A stretch of DNA of 64,000 nt from Squalus acanthias (taxonomy: Eukaryota): the NCBI GenBank assembly GCA_030390025.1, contig CM059431.1, positions 130,946,001 through 131,010,000 on the forward strand. Reading direction: 5' to 3'. The position numbers and the translations under genes are program-made. How positions within the stretch are numbered: position 1 is the first letter of the stretch; every line of letters starts with the position of its first letter. The notes beneath the pieces are model-generated. The model was not told the origin of the DNA and searched no databases. It worked only from the letters and a program-made list of their open reading frames with translations. Positions 9,217 through 53,775 of this stretch are shown here, piece by piece.

Positions 9217-10124
9217 ATCACAGTGTAATAAATTGGATTTTGCCTAGATTGCCTGAGCTGAATTTTTTAACTCGTTATTTCTGTAATGCTAGATTTAGCA
9301 TTTGTGTCAACAATAAGCCTGCAGCATGGAATTAGTTTCAACAACAGTGACTTGAAGTGTTATGGACCAATTCAATCGGAGGATTGTTTCAAGTCCAATG
9401 TCAAATATTCCATACTATTGTGAGAAGATCACTCCTGGAGACACCCGAGAGTCCAGGTGTCAATCTCTTCCATCAACAGAGTGGGGGGGGGGCTTTGCTT
9501 GGCCAGACATGTGAGAGCCTCCTGCTGTTGCTTCAAAGAGTAGGTGTTACCTTTGGGGTTGATAGCTTAGTGGGTCGAGCAACACCCCTCGCAACCATCT
9601 CACAGGCTTAAGGCAGGTCCTGCTCCCTCAGTCACTGAGACACATGGTGATCTGTGTTCTCACTGTGTTGTAAAACTCTGAACCAGCCTAACTTTGTAAG
9701 ATTAAGCAAGCAAAAGGATCCCCATGTTTATAGAGTTACTAAGTTTCATATTTCTCCTAACAGAACAGTGTAGGAAAATGGATTGTTTGCACAGTGAAAA
9801 CTGTTCATTGTTTATTCATGTATTTTATATAAATAAACCATTTGATGGTTTGAAGCCTCATTCGGCAAGATGCTATTTCAGTCCATCTTCCATAAAGAGA
9901 TACATTTCAGTAGCTGTGATGCAGAGCAAGGGTTCTCTGTCATGATTCCTGGGTCATGTGATTGTTTATCTAGATAGTGGCAGAAAATATGAGCACTCTG
10001 GATTGTGTGGGCCACGAGTCTGCTTCCAGGGGTGATTGGTGACGCTGGATTTGAGCAAATATCTAGTGCAAAAACACAACAACTGTGACACATAGGAACA
10101 GGCAAATAGAGTCACAGTTTCATG

Positions 10125-45832: not shown

Positions 45833-48664
45833 TATGCATCAAATGGAAGTGTTGTAGCTACTTTGAAGTCTTCCATTCAGTAAGAGCACTAGGGAACTAG
45901 CGTTGATCAATCAAATGGAAGCGCAGAAGGATGGTGACATCAGCTTCTTACCAAATAATGTGACCTCTTTGTAGGCTAGTAATGCATTAAACATAAAGGC
46001 AGCTGAGATCTTTCATTGTGTCTCTGGGAGGAGCTATTTAACATTTTCAGCATGTGTGGCTCTCTCTTTTCCTTTACCATCATTTATAGTATTTGGTGCA
46101 GTCCAGCAGCATATGTCCACAGTAACTGCCAACGAGCAACAAACCAGATCCTCATTAATGATGATTGAATCTACCATGTTATGAATAAAAATTAACTAAT
46201 TTAGTGAATGATGATAAAGACTTGCTCACCCATATCCAAATTTTATTTTAACAAGGTTATGTGCATTTCTCATAAAATGTATTGAATGAACAGTAAAACT
46301 GATGTTTCTGCCATAAGTTTAATAGAGCAAAATTACCTCTGACAAGTAGCTCTCTGTAACAGGGTGCAGCTCGTAATCACATTATTCTGTCTGTCTTGTG
46401 TTAGTGCCAAATTGAGTCCAAACAGAAATTTATTGAGCACGTATCCTGATGCAAGGCAGATATTGCTTCACTGGACTGAATACTGGAATTTGTTTTTCTT
46501 CTGCCTGTGAATGATGATGGCATTAAAAGGCTTCACATTTGTAAATTATTCACCCACTAATGGACACATGGATGTGTACTGTCTTACCAAATTGAGGAAT
46601 GGTTGGTTGATGATTGATGGGTGAGATCAAAGGTTCTATCCATCAATCATTCAGCTTCTTCTTAAACTAGTATAATATTACTCAGGCATCTGATGTTCAT
46701 AAATAAGACTGAAATCCCACAATCCTTCCACATCTGATGTAATAGCTGAGTTGAAAGGGAAGTAATATACCTTCTGCTGATAAAATTCCTCTGATAAATT
46801 TAATCCTGATCCCGTTTAAAAGCCTCTACAAACTTCATTCTAGTTGTCTTTTCATCGGCAATATGGAATCTGAGTTTACAGATGTCCCACAATCCCAATC
46901 CGGGTTAGGAGGTAAAGGAATTATGGAATCTAGGGTCCTGAGTGAGAAAGATTGGGGAAACAGCCTGAGAAACTGGGATCACTGAACCAAAATAAGGGTC
47001 TTAGGCAGTTGATGATCCAGGCCTCTTACAGTGCTACTTCTGAGCCAACCTTAGAAGATCTACTGCAGCAATCGGGTGACCTGTTCACCAATTTTCACTT
47101 GCTACGGGTAAGTGCTACCTTCTCCGATAACACAGCCATGTGAGAACTTGTTATGAGGGGAACCATTGTATGGCAAAGCATATTGGAGCACCGACAAAGA
47201 CTTAGATTTTTTTTTAATGGGATTAGGGTGAAATGTAACATGAATTTCAACCGAGTTGCAATTAATGCAATTCTGGATTCTTTTCTGACATAACAGCAAC
47301 TACAAGCAACATCTGAGCAGAATTCCAGACCAAATTGGGAATAGTCATGTGGGCAAATACTGAAGAGACCCTTAATCTTATCACTCCTTGCAGTTGTGCC
47401 ATCCGATATTTCCATTTTTTTTGTGTTGAGAAAGTAGTTGATGTCTTATTGGCCAAAATATATTTTACCCCTATTTCCCATATTCGACCATGCTGTCAGA
47501 AGAATTCACGAGATATCAAGCAGGTGCCAGGCTGTTCCCCACAGGAAGGGAAAGTTTGTAAATTAATCCATAATTGGCTCATTTTGGTGACTGGAATTCT
47601 GTTCAAATCTTGCTCATAGTCACTACTATTCCAGAAAATCCAAAGGCATATTAATAGTGAAAGTGTTGTCAGAGGAGCAGTGGGGCCAATTACGGACCAA
47701 AATGGAGATTTATTGGTAGGGGCATAAGTCATGCCTGAGGTACTAAATCAATACTTTGCATCAGTGTTAACCAAGGAAGAGGACTTTGCCAAAGTTACGG
47801 TAAATGAGGAGGATGTCGGGATACTGGATGAGATAAAAATAGATAAAGAGGAGGTACTAGAAAGTCTGGCAGTACTTAAAGTGGATAAGTCACCCGGTCC
47901 GGATGGGATGCATCCTAGGTTGTTGAGGGAAATAAGGATAGAAATTGCGAAGGTACTGGCCACAATCTTCCAATCCTTCTTGGCGGTAGGTGCCAGAGGA
48001 CTGGAGGACTGCAAATCTTACACCCTTGTTCAAAAAAGGGGAGAATGATAAACCTGGCAATTACAGGCCAGCCAGTTTAACAACGTGCTGGTGAGGAAGC
48101 TTTAAGAAAAAATAATCCAGGAGAAAATTAACAGCCACTTGGGCAAGCATGGACTAATAAAGGAGAGCCAGCACAGATTTGTTGGACAAATCGTGTTTGA
48201 CTAATTTGATTGAGTTTTTTGATGAGGTAACAGAGAGGATGGATGAGGGCAGTGCAGCTGATGTTGTGTATATGAACTTTCAAAAGGCGTTTGATAAAGT
48301 ACACATATTAGGCTTATTAGCAAAATTGAAGCCCATGGGATAAAAGAGGCGGTAGCAGCATGGATACAAAATTGGTAATAAACAGAGAGTTGTGGTGAAT
48401 GGCCGTTTTTCAGACTGGAGGGAGGTTGTTGTTTCGTATGATGGGAAAAACTTATAATCGGATGTCTAGTTTGGCTATCCAGTCAATGGCCTCCTGAGAT
48501 GCCGAGTGGAGGGAAGTATATAGTGGTTCTCCCCAGGGTTCTGTACCAGGACCACTTTTGAAGCATTTAGATGAGCACTTGAAACGCCATAACATACAAG
48601 GCTACGGACCAAGTGCTGGAAAATGGGATTAGAATAGATAGGGCTTGATGGCCGGCATGGACAC

Positions 48665-48847
48665 TGTCGTAAGAATGAGCCTTACGCGTGGTAAACTTAA
48701 TGTAAGCTTTAATCAACTTAAAACGGTGCTGCATACAAAAGAGGTCTTACCCTATGCCTCTTCCAGATCTGACTGATCAGTCCAGTATTTATCCTGGACT
48801 GATTACAGGAAGTGATGTAATACAGGAAGCTGAAAAGTGTTACCACA
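48665..48847 (-). repeat. 3' LTR of Gypsy B
   Basis: Base-for-base identical to 52902-53084. Confidence 0.97.
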
Positions 48848-48865
48848 TTCTCCCCCCCCAAAAGA

Positions 48866-51800
48866 TTAGGAGGCCGGGATGCTCCCTCCATTTCGTAGCC
48901 GTTGGATGAGGGAGAGCCGCACCCGTTTGGGTTCTCGTAGCGGTAGAGGGCCCCTAGCCCGTTTACCCGCTGCAGGCCATGGACCAGAGTCCGAGTGCTC
49001 CAGCCCGCTCTGTGAGGGGTCAGAACGATCCTGACTGTGTACTGGTACCCGAATGGGTGTCGGGCAGGGCTGTGGCAGATCCGTTTCTGAGCGTACGGTA
49101 CAGGGTTGATCGTGGCTGCGCGTGCGAGCCCCGACGGGCTCATAGTCAGTCTGCCCCAGGTCGGCACGCTGGAGTGAGGTACCAGCCGGCGTCAGATCCC
49201 GATCATGATGAGAGGCACCTGGCAAGCCCAGAGATGTGCCTGGTACAATATCATCCCCTGGTGTCCCTCTATGTTTCGGCGGGCAGGGAGCCAGATCCCG
49301 CAATGACACGGTAGATTCCCGACCGTCAGGATACCGAATATAGGCGTAGGTAGGGTTGACGTCAGTGAGCTCAACCTCATCTACCAGGGGGTCATTCTTA
49401 GACGCCCGGACATATCTTCGGAGTAGCACTGGTCCCGGTGCAGTCAGCCACGACGGGAGAGATGTCCCATAGGATGAGCGACGCTGAAATCGGAAGAACC
49501 GTTCATGAGGCGTCGTATTTGTGGCGGTCGAAAGGAGGGACCGTGTGGAGTGTAATGCGTCTGGAAGTACTGCTTCCCAATGCTGGTTGGGTAGGCCCCG
49601 AGATCTCAAAGCCAGACGTACCGCATTCCAGATGATAGCGTTAAAACGCTCGACTTGCCCATTCCCAACCGGATGATAAGGCGTCGTTTTGCTGGCAGCA
49701 ATACCCCGTTCCGAGAGATAGGCCTTGAGTTCTCCCGACATAAAAGAAGGGCCCCGATCTGAATGAACATAGGATGCCATGCCACAGAAAGCAAATACCT
49801 GTTCAAGGCAGCTGATAACCGTGGTTGTCAGCATATTGGGGCAGGGAAAGGCAAACGGAAAACGAGAATACTCATCAACCATTGTTAATAGATAAGTGTT
49901 GCGAGTCGAAGAGGGCAACGGCCCCTTAAAATCGATGCTAAGCCTTTGCATTGGCTGGGTCGCATGTATGAGTATACCACCCGAGGGGCGGAAAAACCGA
50001 GGTTTCAATTCCGCACAGACTCTGCAGTCCGAGCACATCTTCTTTACATCCCCGGTAGAGAATGGGAGATTTCGGGACCGCACGAAGTGCAGCATGCGAG
50101 TAACGCCTGGATGACACAACCCATCATGGATGTCTACGAGCGTAGAGGGTGCCATGGCGGAGCAGAATGCTCGTGTGAGGGTATCCGGAGCCACATTCTC
50201 CTTGCCAGGTCGATAGTGGATGGTGTAACCAAAAGAGGCCAATTCCAGCCGCCAAAGCTGGATTTTATTATTTTTAATTTTGGTCCGTTTTCGATTATCG
50301 AGCATGAAGGCGACCGATCGCTGGTCCGTGATTAAGGTAAAGTGCTGGCGAGCCAGGAGATGACTCCACTTCCGTACTGCCTCTATGATGGCTGTAGCTT
50401 CTTTCTCGACTGGAGGATAATGTAGCTCAGCCCCTTGAAAAGTCCTGGACAAAAATGCCACCGGACGACCTTCCTGATTCAGAGTGGCTGAGATTGCCAC
50501 CTCCGAGGCATCACACTCAACCACGAAAGGAAGACTCTCATCGATGGAGTGAAGAGCCGCTTTCTCCAACTGCTTTTTCAGGAGGTTAAAGGCTGCAACA
50601 GCCGTTGTGTCTAGTGGGAATATGCTGGCCTTCAGTAGAGGTTGGATTCGGTCCGAGAAGTTAGGAATCCATTTCGCATAGTATGCAAACAGGCCGAGGG
50701 CCCGGCGCAAGGAGGCCGGATTCTTAGGTGGCGGGAGTTCTTGGAGTGGGCGAAGCCTTTCAGGGTCAGGTTTAATGATGCCATTGCCCACACAATAGCC
50801 AAGGATGTTGATAGTTGGTTGTGACTCAATGGATTTAGCCGCATTCAATGTCAAATTACGGTGCTGGAGTGCATCCCAAAATCGTTGGAGATTGGCGTCA
50901 TGTTCCTGCTGATTGCGACCTGCGACAGTAATATTGTCCAGATAAGGAAACGTATCCTTCAAGTCTTCCTGTTTGACCAGGTCATCCATTGCTCGCTGGA
51001 AGACAGCCACTCCATTAGTGACCCCAAAGGGGAGGCGACGAAATTGATACAGCCGCCCATTGGCTTCAAAGGCTGTATACTGCTTGTCTGAGACCTTCAA
51101 GGGTACCTGATGATAGGCGCTTTTCAGATCATAAGTCGAGAACACCGTGTACTCAGCCAATTTATTAACCATATCATCGATGCGCGGCAATGGGTATGCG
51201 TCCAAGTCCGTATACTGATTGATGGTCTGTGAATAGTCAATGCACAGCCGTTTCTTGTGAGGTTGTAGAGGGTTCTTAACAATAACGACCTGGGCGCGCC
51301 ATGGCGACGAACAAGGCTCGATGATATCCTCTGCTAAAAGCCGAGAAATCTCAGCCGCAATAAAAGACTGGTCTTCCTGACTGAAACGGCGTGACTTTGT
51401 TATAATCGGTTTGCATCGAGGAGGGATACTGGCAAACAGTGAGGGTTCATCCAGTGAAGCTGCTGACAAGGCACAGAACGGTAATCGAGGTCGTATATTA
51501 GAAATAGTGAGTTCAGGTTTGGATCCGCCGAACTCAATGGTAAGCTTCTTATGCTGCTTTTGAAAATCCAGCCCTAAGATAAGATCACTACATAAGTCCT
51601 TGAGCACCGAAAGCCGGGTGGAGGGATACCTGTGACCTTTAAGCATTATTTCAACTACACAGAAGCCAGAAATTCTGGTATTAAGTGATGACTGAGCCAT
51701 CGCAACTGCCTGGTCCGATGGAAAAACATGTAGCTTTAACTGTGCAACAGTCTGTTCCCTAATGAAACTATCAGTGCTACCTGAGTCAATTAAGGCATCT

Positions 51801-52822
51801 AAAGTATGTCCATTAATTGATGCTTTTGTAGCTGCATGGAATAGGTTCTGAGGACAAGCAGCTGTAATTGGTGTCGTTGCACAAAGAGTGGCTGAAATTC
51901 TAGGTGTGTTTCTTCGAGAAAAAACCCGAGAGGAAGCACGATAGTTTTTAGTTGGAACATCCTGATAGGCCCTTACTGGGGCAGTTCGGTAGGACTTAGC
52001 TTGATAAGCCCTCGTAGAGGCTCTTGATAGGCAAACCTTTACAAAATGACCCTTTTTGTTGCAATGACTGCAAAACGCATTGCGAGCAGGGCAGAATCTC
52101 CGAGGGTGAAACTCATCACCACAAAAAAAGCATTTCTTAGATTGCCAAGAGGCTGCCACAGTGGGGTCATCATCCTCTTCATCAGTGAAGTCATCAGATC
52201 GATCGTCAGGGATAAAGTCCTCCCTAATAGAGTTCACCTGTGGCCTCTTAAATTGCCTGACTGTAGTTAAGGCAGCAGACCGAGGTCTGGGCACTGTAAA
52301 AAGGTCTGCATTTCTTTTTGCCAGATCTAGAGAGCAAGCCAGGTCATAAGCTCTCTGCAGCTCAAGTGTCTTACTTTCCAGTAGACGCTGGCGTATAAAT
52401 GGGGAGGCAAGCCCGCAGATGAACGCATCACGGATCATTTCTTCGCGGTATAGCTCAGCTGAGGCTGCCCGAAAGTTACAGTCCATACTAAGTCTGCGAA
52501 GCTCTTGGAGGAATTTATCAATGGATTCCTCCGGCCCTTGTTGGGCTGTAGCTAGTAGATGTCTAGCATAGACCTCATTCGGTGTCTTAGTATATAGTCT
52601 CTTAAGCGTCTGAATTGCCTCCTCATAACTGTCCCAGTCTTCCACATACTGAAATACATTCGGGGTGACACAGTTGATGAGTATCCGCAACTTTGAGTTA
52701 TCATCAGCTTTGCAATACTCAAGAAAATTCTCAAACGTGCGATACCAGTGTTTCCACACCTTACCGGCTGCTGGGGTGTTTGGGTCCAAGTCAAGACGCG
52801 ATGGTTTAAGGATGTTTTCCAT
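48866..52822 (-). CDS. Gag-Pol polyprotein (1318 aa): gag, zinc knuckles, protease, RT, RNase H, integrase
   Basis: CFFC..H..C and CSHCNKKGHFVKVC; LIDSGST; DLKSAYHQ, LPFG, YLDN; VECDAS, TDQ; HPG..CRVC, IDFKG, HSDRG, GNGQVERFN. Confidence 0.97.
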   Translation of the reverse strand: MENILKPSRLDLDPNTPAAGKVWKHWYRTFENFLEYCKADDNSKLRILINCVTPNVFQYVEDWDSYEEAIQTLKRLYTKTPNEVYARHLLATAQQGPEESIDKFLQELRRLSMDCNFRAASAELYREEMIRDAFICGLASPFIRQRLLESKTLELQRAYDLACSLDLAKRNADLFTVPRPRSAALTTVRQFKRPQVNSIREDFIPDDRSDDFTDEEDDDPTVAASWQSKKCFFCGDEFHPRRFCPARNAFCSHCNKKGHFVKVCLSRASTRAYQAKSYRTAPVRAYQDVPTKNYRASSRVFSRRNTPRISATLCATTPITAACPQNLFHAATKASINGHTLDALIDSGSTDSFIREQTVAQLKLHVFPSDQAVAMAQSSLNTRISGFCVVEIMLKGHRYPSTRLSVLKDLCSDLILGLDFQKQHKKLTIEFGGSKPELTISNIRPRLPFCALSAASLDEPSLFASIPPRCKPIITKSRRFSQEDQSFIAAEISRLLAEDIIEPCSSPWRAQVVIVKNPLQPHKKRLCIDYSQTINQYTDLDAYPLPRIDDMVNKLAEYTVFSTYDLKSAYHQVPLKVSDKQYTAFEANGRLYQFRRLPFGVTNGVAVFQRAMDDLVKQEDLKDTFPYLDNITVAGRNQQEHDANLQRFWDALQHRNLTLNAAKSIESQPTINILGYCVGNGIIKPDPERLRPLQELPPPKNPASLRRALGLFAYYAKWIPNFSDRIQPLLKASIFPLDTTAVAAFNLLKKQLEKAALHSIDESLPFVVECDASEVAISATLNQEGRPVAFLSRTFQGAELHYPPVEKEATAIIEAVRKWSHLLARQHFTLITDQRSVAFMLDNRKRTKIKNNKIQLWRLELASFGYTIHYRPGKENVAPDTLTRAFCSAMAPSTLVDIHDGLCHPGVTRMLHFVRSRNLPFSTGDVKKMCSDCRVCAELKPRFFRPSGGILIHATQPMQRLSIDFKGPLPSSTRNTYLLTMVDEYSRFPFAFPCPNMLTTTVISCLEQVFAFCGMASYVHSDRGPSFMSGELKAYLSERGIAASKTTPYHPVGNGQVERFNAIIWNAVRLALRSRGLPNQHWEAVLPDALHSTRSLLSTATNTTPHERFFRFQRRSSYGTSLPSWLTAPGPVLLRRYVRASKNDPLVDEVELTDVNPTYAYIRYPDGRESTVSLRDLAPCPPKHRGTPGDDIVPGTSLGLPGASHHDRDLTPAGTSLQRADLGQTDYEPVGARTRSHDQPCTVRSETDLPQPCPTPIRVPVHSQDRSDPSQSGLEHSDSGPWPAAGKRARGPLPLREPKRVRLSLIQRLRNGGSIPAS

Positions 52823-52901
52823 GATGGGTGATTCCCTGGATCCTTAGCTCCGAGTTCGTCCAAAAAGTTTGAGTGCGAAGTTTTTCCAAAGTTGATTAAA
52901 T

Positions 52902-53084
52902 TGTCGTAAGAATGAGCCTTACGCGTGGTAAACTTAATGTAAGCTTTAATCAACTTAAAACGGTGCTGCATACAAAAGAGGTCTTACCCTATGCCTCTTC
53001 CAGATCTGACTGATCAGTCCAGTATTTATCCTGGACTGATTACAGGAAGTGATGTAATACAGGAAGCTGAAAAGTGTTACCACA
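52902..53084 (-). repeat. 5' LTR of Gypsy B
   Basis: Base-for-base identical to 48665-48847. Confidence 0.97.
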
Positions 53085-53775
53085 GACACGATGGGCCGAA
53101 GGGCCTCTTTCTGTGCTGTATAAATCTATGACTCTATGACTCTGTGACACTGCTGTTTTTGATATACATTAATGACTTGGACTTGGGGGTACAGGATACA
53201 ATTTTGAAATTTGCAAATGACCCAAAACTTGGAAGCATAGTAAACAGTGAGGAAGAGAGTAATAGACTTCAAGAGGACATAGACAGGCTGGTGGAATGGG
53301 CAGACACATGGTAGATGAAATTCAATGCAGAAAAGTGTGAGGTGATACATTTTGGTTGAAAGAATGAGGAGAGACAAGAGAAGCTAAATGGAACAATTTT
53401 AAATGGGGTGCAAGAAAAGAGAGACCTGAGGGTATTTGTGCACAAATCTTTGAAGGTGGCAGAACGGGTTAACAAAGCAGTTAATAAAGCATATGGGATC
53501 CTGGGCTTTATAAATAGAGGCATAGAGTACAAAAGCCAGGAAGTTATGCTAAACCTATATAAAACACTGGTTCGGCCCCAGCTGGAGTATTGTGTCCAAT
53601 TCTGGCCACAACACTTTAGGAAGGAGGTGAAGGCTTTGGAGAGGGTACAGAAGAGATTTACTAAAATGGTTCTAGGGATGAGGCAATACAGTTATGTGCA
53701 TAGACTGGAGAAGCTGGGGTTGTTCTCCTTAGAGCAGAGAAGGCTAAGAAGAGATATGATAGAGGTGTTTAAATG

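Follow-up and report, generated by a model that had tools for sequence, protein, structure and literature searches.

A primer-binding position that covaries with its own LTR points to probable self-priming in a Gypsy retrotransposon of Squalus acanthias without a detectable chromodomain

Introduction

How does an LTR retrotransposon start minus-strand DNA if the sequence next to its 5' LTR does not resemble a tRNA-type primer-binding site (PBS)? The question is raised by a complete LTR retrotransposon of 4420 bp that lies on the minus strand (53084..48665) of a 64-kb window of Squalus acanthias DNA, the window being the whole stretch that was analysed. Priming from the element's own RNA is established for Tf1 and Tf2 and, in the account given in PMC4600332, was inferred for Tj1 from the same sequence signature, Tj1 then being shown to be mobile. 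Vertebrate Gypsy elements of the Tf1/sushi group are likewise reported as self-priming in work cited in PMC6317226 and PMC4600332, and the former describes Tf1/sushi elements as chromoviruses. The same source gives self-priming as a prediction, made from the same signature, for the plant elements Tcn1 (Gypsy) and TAR (Copia).

Results

A complete Gypsy element with a fused gag-pol frame

The element carries direct LTRs bounded by TG..CA, a target-site duplication and a polypurine tract (Table 1), all hallmarks of Ty3/Gypsy; G-rich tracts similar to its ggggggggagaa directly precede the 3' LTR in relatives too. The frame shows the protease, RT, RNase H, integrase order of Ty3/Gypsy (Metaviridae), with Pfam matches to Asp_protease_2 (residues 333-420), RVT_1 (523-676), RT_RNaseH (762-864) and rve (955-1051). 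The closest solved structure in a PDB search is Ty3 Gag-Pol (E = 2.8e-59), and the matches to the protein in PDB and in the protein atlas are generic Gypsy or retroviral ones, none being lineage-specific. A reading of this DNA made earlier from the sequence alone (the sequence-only reading) had seen no evident chromodomain, and this is borne out by Pfam, which gives no Chromo match in the 1318-aa frame at E <= 0.01; by this chromodomain test the element is therefore not a Tf1/sushi chromovirus. Past the integrase, residues ~1180-1318 (48866-49400) form a Pro/Ser/Arg-rich stretch of ~140 aa; matches to relatives stop near residue 1180, and the relatives' proteins are mostly ~1200 aa long.

When the LTR plus leader (79 nt in the window's element) was used to query the element's own 3.7-Gb genome, 1539 candidates were returned and at least 40 copies, those scored, were 99-100% identical, from which it follows that the family is young and numerous.

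Table 1. Coordinates of the element in the 64-kb window and of the features discussed in the text
Feature	Position	Strand	Remarks
Whole LTR retrotransposon	48665..53084	-	Direct repeat pair, 4237-nt spacing; 5-bp target duplication
5' LTR, 183 nt, TG..CA	53084..52902	-	Direct repeat
3' LTR, 183 nt	48847..48665	-	Direct repeat; 100% identical to 5' LTR
Target duplication gtgtc, 5 bp	53089-53085 and 48664-48660		Flanks both LTRs
Polypurine tract ggggggggagaa, G-rich	48848..48859	-	Adjoins 3' LTR
gag-pol frame, single, 1318 aa	48866..52822	-	Two CCHC knuckles, aspartic protease, RT, RNase H, integrase
5' arm AAGTTGATTAAA, candidate self-primer	52956-52945	-	43 nt before LTR end; perfect complement of 3' arm; aligns with relatives' covarying arms
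3' arm TTTAATCAACTT, primer-binding site by position	52900-52889	-	Exact reverse complement of AAGTTGATTAAA
Spacer, single A	52901	-	Between LTR terminal CA (52903-52902) and 3' arm
Copy of AAGTTGATTAAA in 3' LTR	48708..48719	-	No complementary partner downstream
Hairpin 1, gctta-cat-taagt	52944-52932	-	Abuts 5' arm at first base after arm
Hairpin 2, cgtaagg-ctcat-tcttacg	52923-52905	-	Near LTR end; not conserved as such in relatives
TGG, only possible start of a tRNA-type PBS	52886..52888	-	14 nt after LTR; not conserved

The sequence at the PBS position complements the element's own LTR

The sequence-only reading had reported a perfect pairing of 12 nt between a site one nt after the 5' LTR and a segment inside that LTR, enclosing a loop with a cgtaag/cttacg hairpin. 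The coordinates and the pairing proved correct to the base, and the hairpin is present (hairpin 2 of Table 1); the loop between the arms is 44 nt long and holds hairpin 1 as well. What lies next to the 5' LTR is hence a complement, over 12 nt, of the element's own LTR and not of a tRNA 3' end, the property by which the self-priming class is recognised. The 3' arm is the PBS by position, since it begins one base after the CA of the LTR and since the corresponding arm is, in several relatives, the only non-coding sequence before the start codon.

Both arms are unchanged in all 30 sister copies fetched from the same genome (30/30), while the bases just downstream vary. In contigs of run X5, from a related organism, the A at 52955, in the first AA of the 5' arm, is deleted at a depth of 442.8 of 536.7 and the G at 52886, in the GG just past the 3' arm, at a depth of 277.1 of 287.3, these depths being counted per site and not per copy; both deletions are a minority in run X1. 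The deletion at 52955 leaves a stem of 11 bp, in which the arm, AGTTGATTAAA, has the majority letters of the relatives' alignment.

The same geometry recurs in distant relatives

At E <= 1e-3, a protein search returned 1430 homologues. The best 120 are 46-89% identical to the query; the named ones among them belong to shrimp, sea louse, tunicate, soft coral, sea anemone and whipworm, and PF00385 is in the precomputed Pfam list of none of the 120. Even very distant animal phyla hold full-length gag-pol homologues that are 50-69% identical, a high level of identity that might reflect slow evolution or horizontal spread. For the non-coding sequence we used a DNA profile search built on an alignment of 20 proteins, which confirmed 552 of 601 candidate stretches; the best 80 metagenome loci were retained and, with 7 further loci (L111-L117) on contigs filed under bacterial MAGs, gave 87 relatives' loci in all. 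The MAG labels of the latter (Ekhidna, Rubritalea, Leptonemataceae, Metamycoplasmataceae, Bacteroidetes) almost certainly result from eukaryotic DNA having been binned by mistake.

The relatives in which the fold-back is found are 37-69% identical in protein, the most distant being L112 (37%), and share a common geometry: the LTR ends in ...CA, one spacer base follows, then TTT..., and the arms pair perfectly over 11-19 nt although their sequences differ from one relative to another (for example TTTAGCTAGTTAAA, CAAGTTTATTAAA, TAAGCTGTTAAAA, TTTCTAGTCGAATAAA, CTTTTGTTTGTTAAA, TAAGTTTAATAAA and CTTAGTTGAATAAA). Wherever the LTR pair is clean, the site lies 0-1 nt past the 5' LTR and complements perfectly, over 12-19 nt, a segment 21-56 nt before the LTR end. 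The automatic LTR pairs of L031, L038, L046, L057, L066, L111 and L112 were rejected, being overlaps of circularly permuted assemblies and not LTRs, and the sites of these seven loci were taken from the strict scan described below instead.

Of the 30 loci with enough sequence upstream of the frame for an unbiased search for inverted repeats, 23 gave a perfect arm of at least 10 nt in the common geometry. Among the seven scannable loci that lack one, L082 has a single mismatch, L083 and the L106/L109 pair are decayed, the upstream sequence of L043 is too short to be read clearly, and inspection of L055 and L110 gave no clear site. Two further loci are slightly imperfect: L099 has a perfect arm of 10 nt with one mismatch in a longer arm, and L070 has one G.U pair. 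The strict scan is strand-specific and demands CA, then A or T, then TTT..., with a perfect arm of at least 11 nt and a loop of 15-80 nt. Over 791,480 bases, 27 of the 87 loci gave a total of 28 sites on the element strand, vs 1 site on the opposite strand, the other 60 loci being mostly fragments without the junction of LTR and frame. Every one of the 28 element-strand sites lies 15-82 nt before the predicted ATG or, on circularly permuted contigs, one element length after it.

Several features are nearly constant: the LTR end is CA in 26/26 and the spacer is A in 25/26 and T in 1/26, with AAA at the end of the 5' arm and TTT at the start of the site. The loop measures 21-70 nt in the 26 relatives, and in 14 of the 18 relatives that were folded a hairpin begins immediately behind the 5' arm, at the very next base. 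In L034, L041, L042, L069, L037, L075 and L052 the start codon comes 1-5 nt after the 3' arm, and in L103 it is overlapped by the arm (the sites lie near position 10000 of each, 8730-8745 in L041), so that these compact relatives have no other non-coding site available for a PBS. Their leader is essentially the PBS alone, and the fold-back could influence translation initiation where the arm stands beside the start codon.

Compensatory changes maintain the duplex

The arms were put in register by MAFFT in alignments of 18 and of 26 sequences, each compared with 500 shuffles. Paired cells amount to 90.3% with 18 sequences (72.3±1.7 in shuffles) and to 87.7% with 26 (70.9±1.3), and 12 of the 16 stem pairs have changed on both sides in either alignment. 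Cells with a double change number 49 in the smaller alignment, vs 14.7±2.9 in shuffles, and 68 in the larger one, vs 22.0±3.3, values that were reached in 0/500 shuffles in both cases; the row of L112 is one column out of register in the 26-sequence alignment and counts there against the structure. Sliding the partner by 1-3 columns left only 26-50% of cells paired (18 sequences). RNAalifold, unaided, returned the same stem of 13 bp with compensatory changes in 9 of the 13 pairs. The sequence-only reading had proposed compensatory change as a test of the pairing, and the outcome is strongly positive. It had also described a tttt/aaaa extension of the stem; in the element this does exist past a t+tgg bulge (52960-52957 with 52885-52881, tttt/aaaa(a)), but the three outermost stem pairs do no better than chance in the alignment (14-16/26 paired), and the extension is therefore not a conserved feature.

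When post-LTR sites were compared with LTRs, 15 of 19 matched their own over 11-16 nt, and foreign LTRs were matched only where the arm sequence was common. A post-LTR site that changes in step with its own LTR is what self-priming would predict. Covariation in such alignments is nevertheless proof of a conserved duplex and not of priming.

A self-primed start is the best reading of the duplex

Because perfect pairing at the position of the PBS has been kept by compensatory change in distant relatives, we regard a Tf1-type start of minus-strand DNA, primed by the element's own RNA and not by a tRNA, as the best reading of these sequences and as a probable one. In this scheme, the 5' end of the transcript would fold back so that a segment internal to the LTR (AAGTTGATTAAA in the window's element, 11-19 nt with an ...AAA end in relatives) pairs with the post-LTR site. 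The RNase H of the element's RT would then cut after the last paired A, and the freed 3'-OH would be extended through the spacer and U5, as far as the cut. The resulting short strong-stop DNA would transfer to the matching stretch close to the RNA's 3' end, the functional repeat for strand transfer reaching from the cut to the poly(A) site, with the abutting hairpin inside it. Plus-strand synthesis would finally copy the RNA primer and rewrite the PBS from the LTR segment, and through this copying the arms would be kept perfectly matched in each cycle. Cleavage, extension and PBS rewriting are all inferred, and so is the presence of the 5' arm in the RNA.

Alternatively, the conserved duplex could be a regulatory or packaging RNA structure in an element whose reverse transcription is primed otherwise; possible functions would be concealment of the 5' poly(A) signal, control of the start codon close by, or help in dimerisation or encapsidation. 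This would agree with covariation, which speaks for the duplex and not for its use, with the hairpin abutting the arm in most of the relatives folded, and with the proximity of the 3' arm to the start codon, or its overlap with it, in several of them. It would also agree with the 5' arm ending in a poly(A)-type hexamer, ATTAAA in the window's element and AATAAA or ATTAAA in 14 of 26 (this element and 13 others). The remaining 12 arms end in GTTAAA, TTTAAA, TGAAAA and similar words, two of the 12 having a canonical hexamer in the loop, and poly(A) masking can therefore not be the general reason for the duplex. Moreover, rebuilding of the LTR requires a PBS right next to U5, a place that in the compact relatives is taken up by the arm alone, and 0 of 26 sites begin with TGG. 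A structural role and a primer role do not exclude each other, and a duplex that is regulatory instead of priming appears unlikely to us.

The same counts decide how much of the sequence-only reading can be kept. Its proposal of self-priming is sustained by the pairing at the PBS position, by covariation and by the lack of a tRNA site, while the coupling of priming to read-through of a masked poly(A) signal holds only in part: it fits the 14 arms that end in a canonical hexamer, the window's element among them, and not the other 12. Where the arm does end so, the duplex may, as a secondary and weaker point, hide AAUAAA/AUUAAA in the 5' copy only; in the 3' LTR, the copy of the arm has no complementary partner downstream and its ATTAAA is therefore unpaired. 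HIV-1, in which an RNA hairpin occludes the 5' poly(A) signal, offers a precedent for a stem that hides the hexamer in the 5' copy alone. It differs in that the hairpin of HIV-1 is local and unrelated to priming, whereas the partner strand in the element is the PBS itself and the hexamer is confined to the 14 of 26.

It is also conceivable that the element self-primes through the arm of the 3' LTR copy, on the same RNA or on a second packaged RNA, transcription then starting downstream of an arm that would lie in U3. In 18 relatives the stretch 25-35 nt upstream of the arm holds no TATA-like word, and a poly(A) hexamer placed in U3 is a known retroviral layout. A cut after the arm in the 3' copy would, however, detach the 3' repeat that strand transfer needs, and the short, bounded loop of the relatives, together with the hairpin stacked on the arm, fits a local structure. 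In Tf1, besides, it is the 5' end of the RNA itself that serves as primer (PMC7175516). Priming from the 3' copy or a second RNA is accordingly improbable, and more so than a purely regulatory duplex. With regard to the start site, alignment A3 has, in columns 14-17 (~52958-52954), a G in 25/26 preceded by an A in 22/26, after a T-rich run; this fixed AG of the covarying stem sits 10-11 nt from the 3' end of the arm. The T-rich run and AG may be an initiator-like start site that would give an 11-nt primer as in Tf1, which is only a guess.

For conventional priming, the site would have to be matched by a tRNA or tRNA half of the host or by another small RNA. A tRNA-type PBS runs over 8-18 nt, starts with TGG and lies a few nt from the LTR; the site of the element starts with TTTA, and the nearest TGG is the one 14 nt away, which is TTG in 3 of the 30 sister copies and has no counterpart in relatives, in agreement with the sequence-only reading, which had denied a tRNA-type PBS. 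An Rfam tRNA search of the host's own genome supplied 38 tRNAs, 13 of them distinct and representing 4 anticodon types, and within this sample no complement of at least 7 nt to the site was found, the best being 6 nt. No tRNA gene was detected in the window by ARAGORN, and no Rfam family matches 52700-53150. Nor were four 7-nt arm words found in the supplements of a metazoan Gypsy survey, which according to PMC13524379 include tables of tRNA and PBS 12-mers. With four tRNA types sampled, an internal tRNA fragment, of the kind that Copia-type elements use (PMC6317226), could still be imagined for the window's element. Across relatives, however, site and LTR change in concert and the site is not the same from host to host, which disfavours a conserved host RNA as primer and makes this route very improbable.

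As to chance, the 64-kb window holds three occurrences of the 12-mer (in both LTRs and, as complement, at the post-LTR site) vs 0.03 expected, a count reached in 0/100 shuffles, and none of 1558 control windows of 16 nt, drawn from the element and 18 relatives, has a complementarity of 10 nt or more to its own LTR tail, the maximum being 9. The folding energy of the region, -20.4 kcal/mol, is not exceptional (z = -1.94; 8/200 shuffles are equally stable), and our argument is accordingly built on where the site lies and on comparison instead of stability. A merely accidental complementarity of AT-rich sequence, which the composition of both arms and the modest z-score might have suggested, is refuted by the 12-mer count, the control windows, the strand-specific scan and covariation, and its probability is negligible.

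Discussion

The class of mechanism to which the fold-back points is already known; what the element adds is a different animal lineage, devoid of a detectable chromodomain, that carries the same signature with unusually clean covariation. As in Tf1, Tf2 and Tj1, there is no tRNA-type PBS and the post-LTR sequence complements LTR-derived RNA of the same element farther upstream. The arms of the element and Tf1 are of similar size (~11-13 nt; 11 in Tf1, PMC7175516), and both have a further stem-loop beside the duplex, which in Tf1 is the U5-IR stem-loop. In contrast to Tf1, Tf2 and Tj1, the element has no chromodomain match and its hosts are metazoan; it differs from Tf1, too, in that its primer segment is a candidate by sequence, which always has the AAA end and often a poly(A) hexamer. 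The plant elements Tcn1 and TAR, for which self-priming is deduced from the same signature, are a parallel in showing that such predictions are not confined to one clade; they belong to other superfamilies or clades and other hosts, and an overlap with a poly(A) hexamer is not mentioned in the passages of PMC6317226 that deal with them.

Architecture separates the element from the vertebrate Tf1/sushi group (sushi-ichi, V-clade): pufferfish V-clade elements are described in PMC11117352 with LTRs of ~330-540 bp and mostly separate gag and pol, whereas the element has LTRs of 183 bp, a fused gag-pol and no chromodomain. It is closer to fish Mag, for which the same paper gives ~4.7-4.8 kb, LTRs of ~210 bp and gag and pol fused in a single frame of 1330-1365 aa; at 4420 bp, with a fused frame of 1318 aa, the element shows the short size, short LTRs, fused gag-pol and missing chromodomain of the Mag family, a likeness by architecture alone. 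The Mag lineage (Mag, SURL/C-clade, Jule) is widespread in metazoans (PMC6238403, PMC8220671), and so are the homologues of the element. Full-text searches gave no paper in which Mag, C-clade, Gmr1 or Cigr-1 elements are connected with self-priming; an earlier description in older primary papers is possible.

To the Tf1/sushi chromoviruses, in which self-priming is accepted, and the few plant lineages for which it is predicted, its signature now adds a chromodomain-less animal lineage whose homologues span crustaceans, tunicates, cnidarians, nematodes and a vertebrate. We put forward, tentatively and with clearly less confidence than self-priming of the window's element, that a metazoan-wide Gypsy lineage, Mag-like in architecture and without chromodomain, self-primes from an LTR-internal piece of RNA with an ...AAA end, usually a poly(A) hexamer, so that one duplex would be primer, start of the repeat and mask of the 5' poly(A) signal. 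Were this true, self-priming would be ancestral to, or would have evolved independently in, one of the commonest retrotransposon lineages of animals, and unassignable or mis-assigned tRNA sites in the annotation of these lineages would be explained. It would also bear on hairpin priming as an ancestral state of LTR elements, an idea raised in PMC3601003. For annotation, pipelines that match tRNAs would mislabel or miss the primer site of such elements, which can be searched for by a simple rule: an LTR ending in ...CA is followed, after a single base, by TTT... that complements a segment 21-70 nt upstream. As copies of this very young family abound in the genome, its native RNA ends and cDNA intermediates could be accessible to direct reading.

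Some minor observations concern single contigs and the surroundings of the element. L043 is a permuted contig of 4046 nt that stops within the 5' arm and has its first base immediately past it, with its ends at the proposed cleavage point, which may be an accident of assembly. In the RNA-labelled run X9, three contigs were found, all in pol and at a depth of ~3, which is no proof of transcription. The insertion is hosted by another repeat, the halves of which flank the element (53085-53170 and 48560-48664), reading ...ggcccatcgtgtc up to the insertion and catgccggccatcaagccc... after it; in contigs of run X1 the summed depth reaches 33,728 in the bin 53024-53150 vs ~150-700 over most of the element, and the flanking repeat is therefore far more abundant than the element itself.
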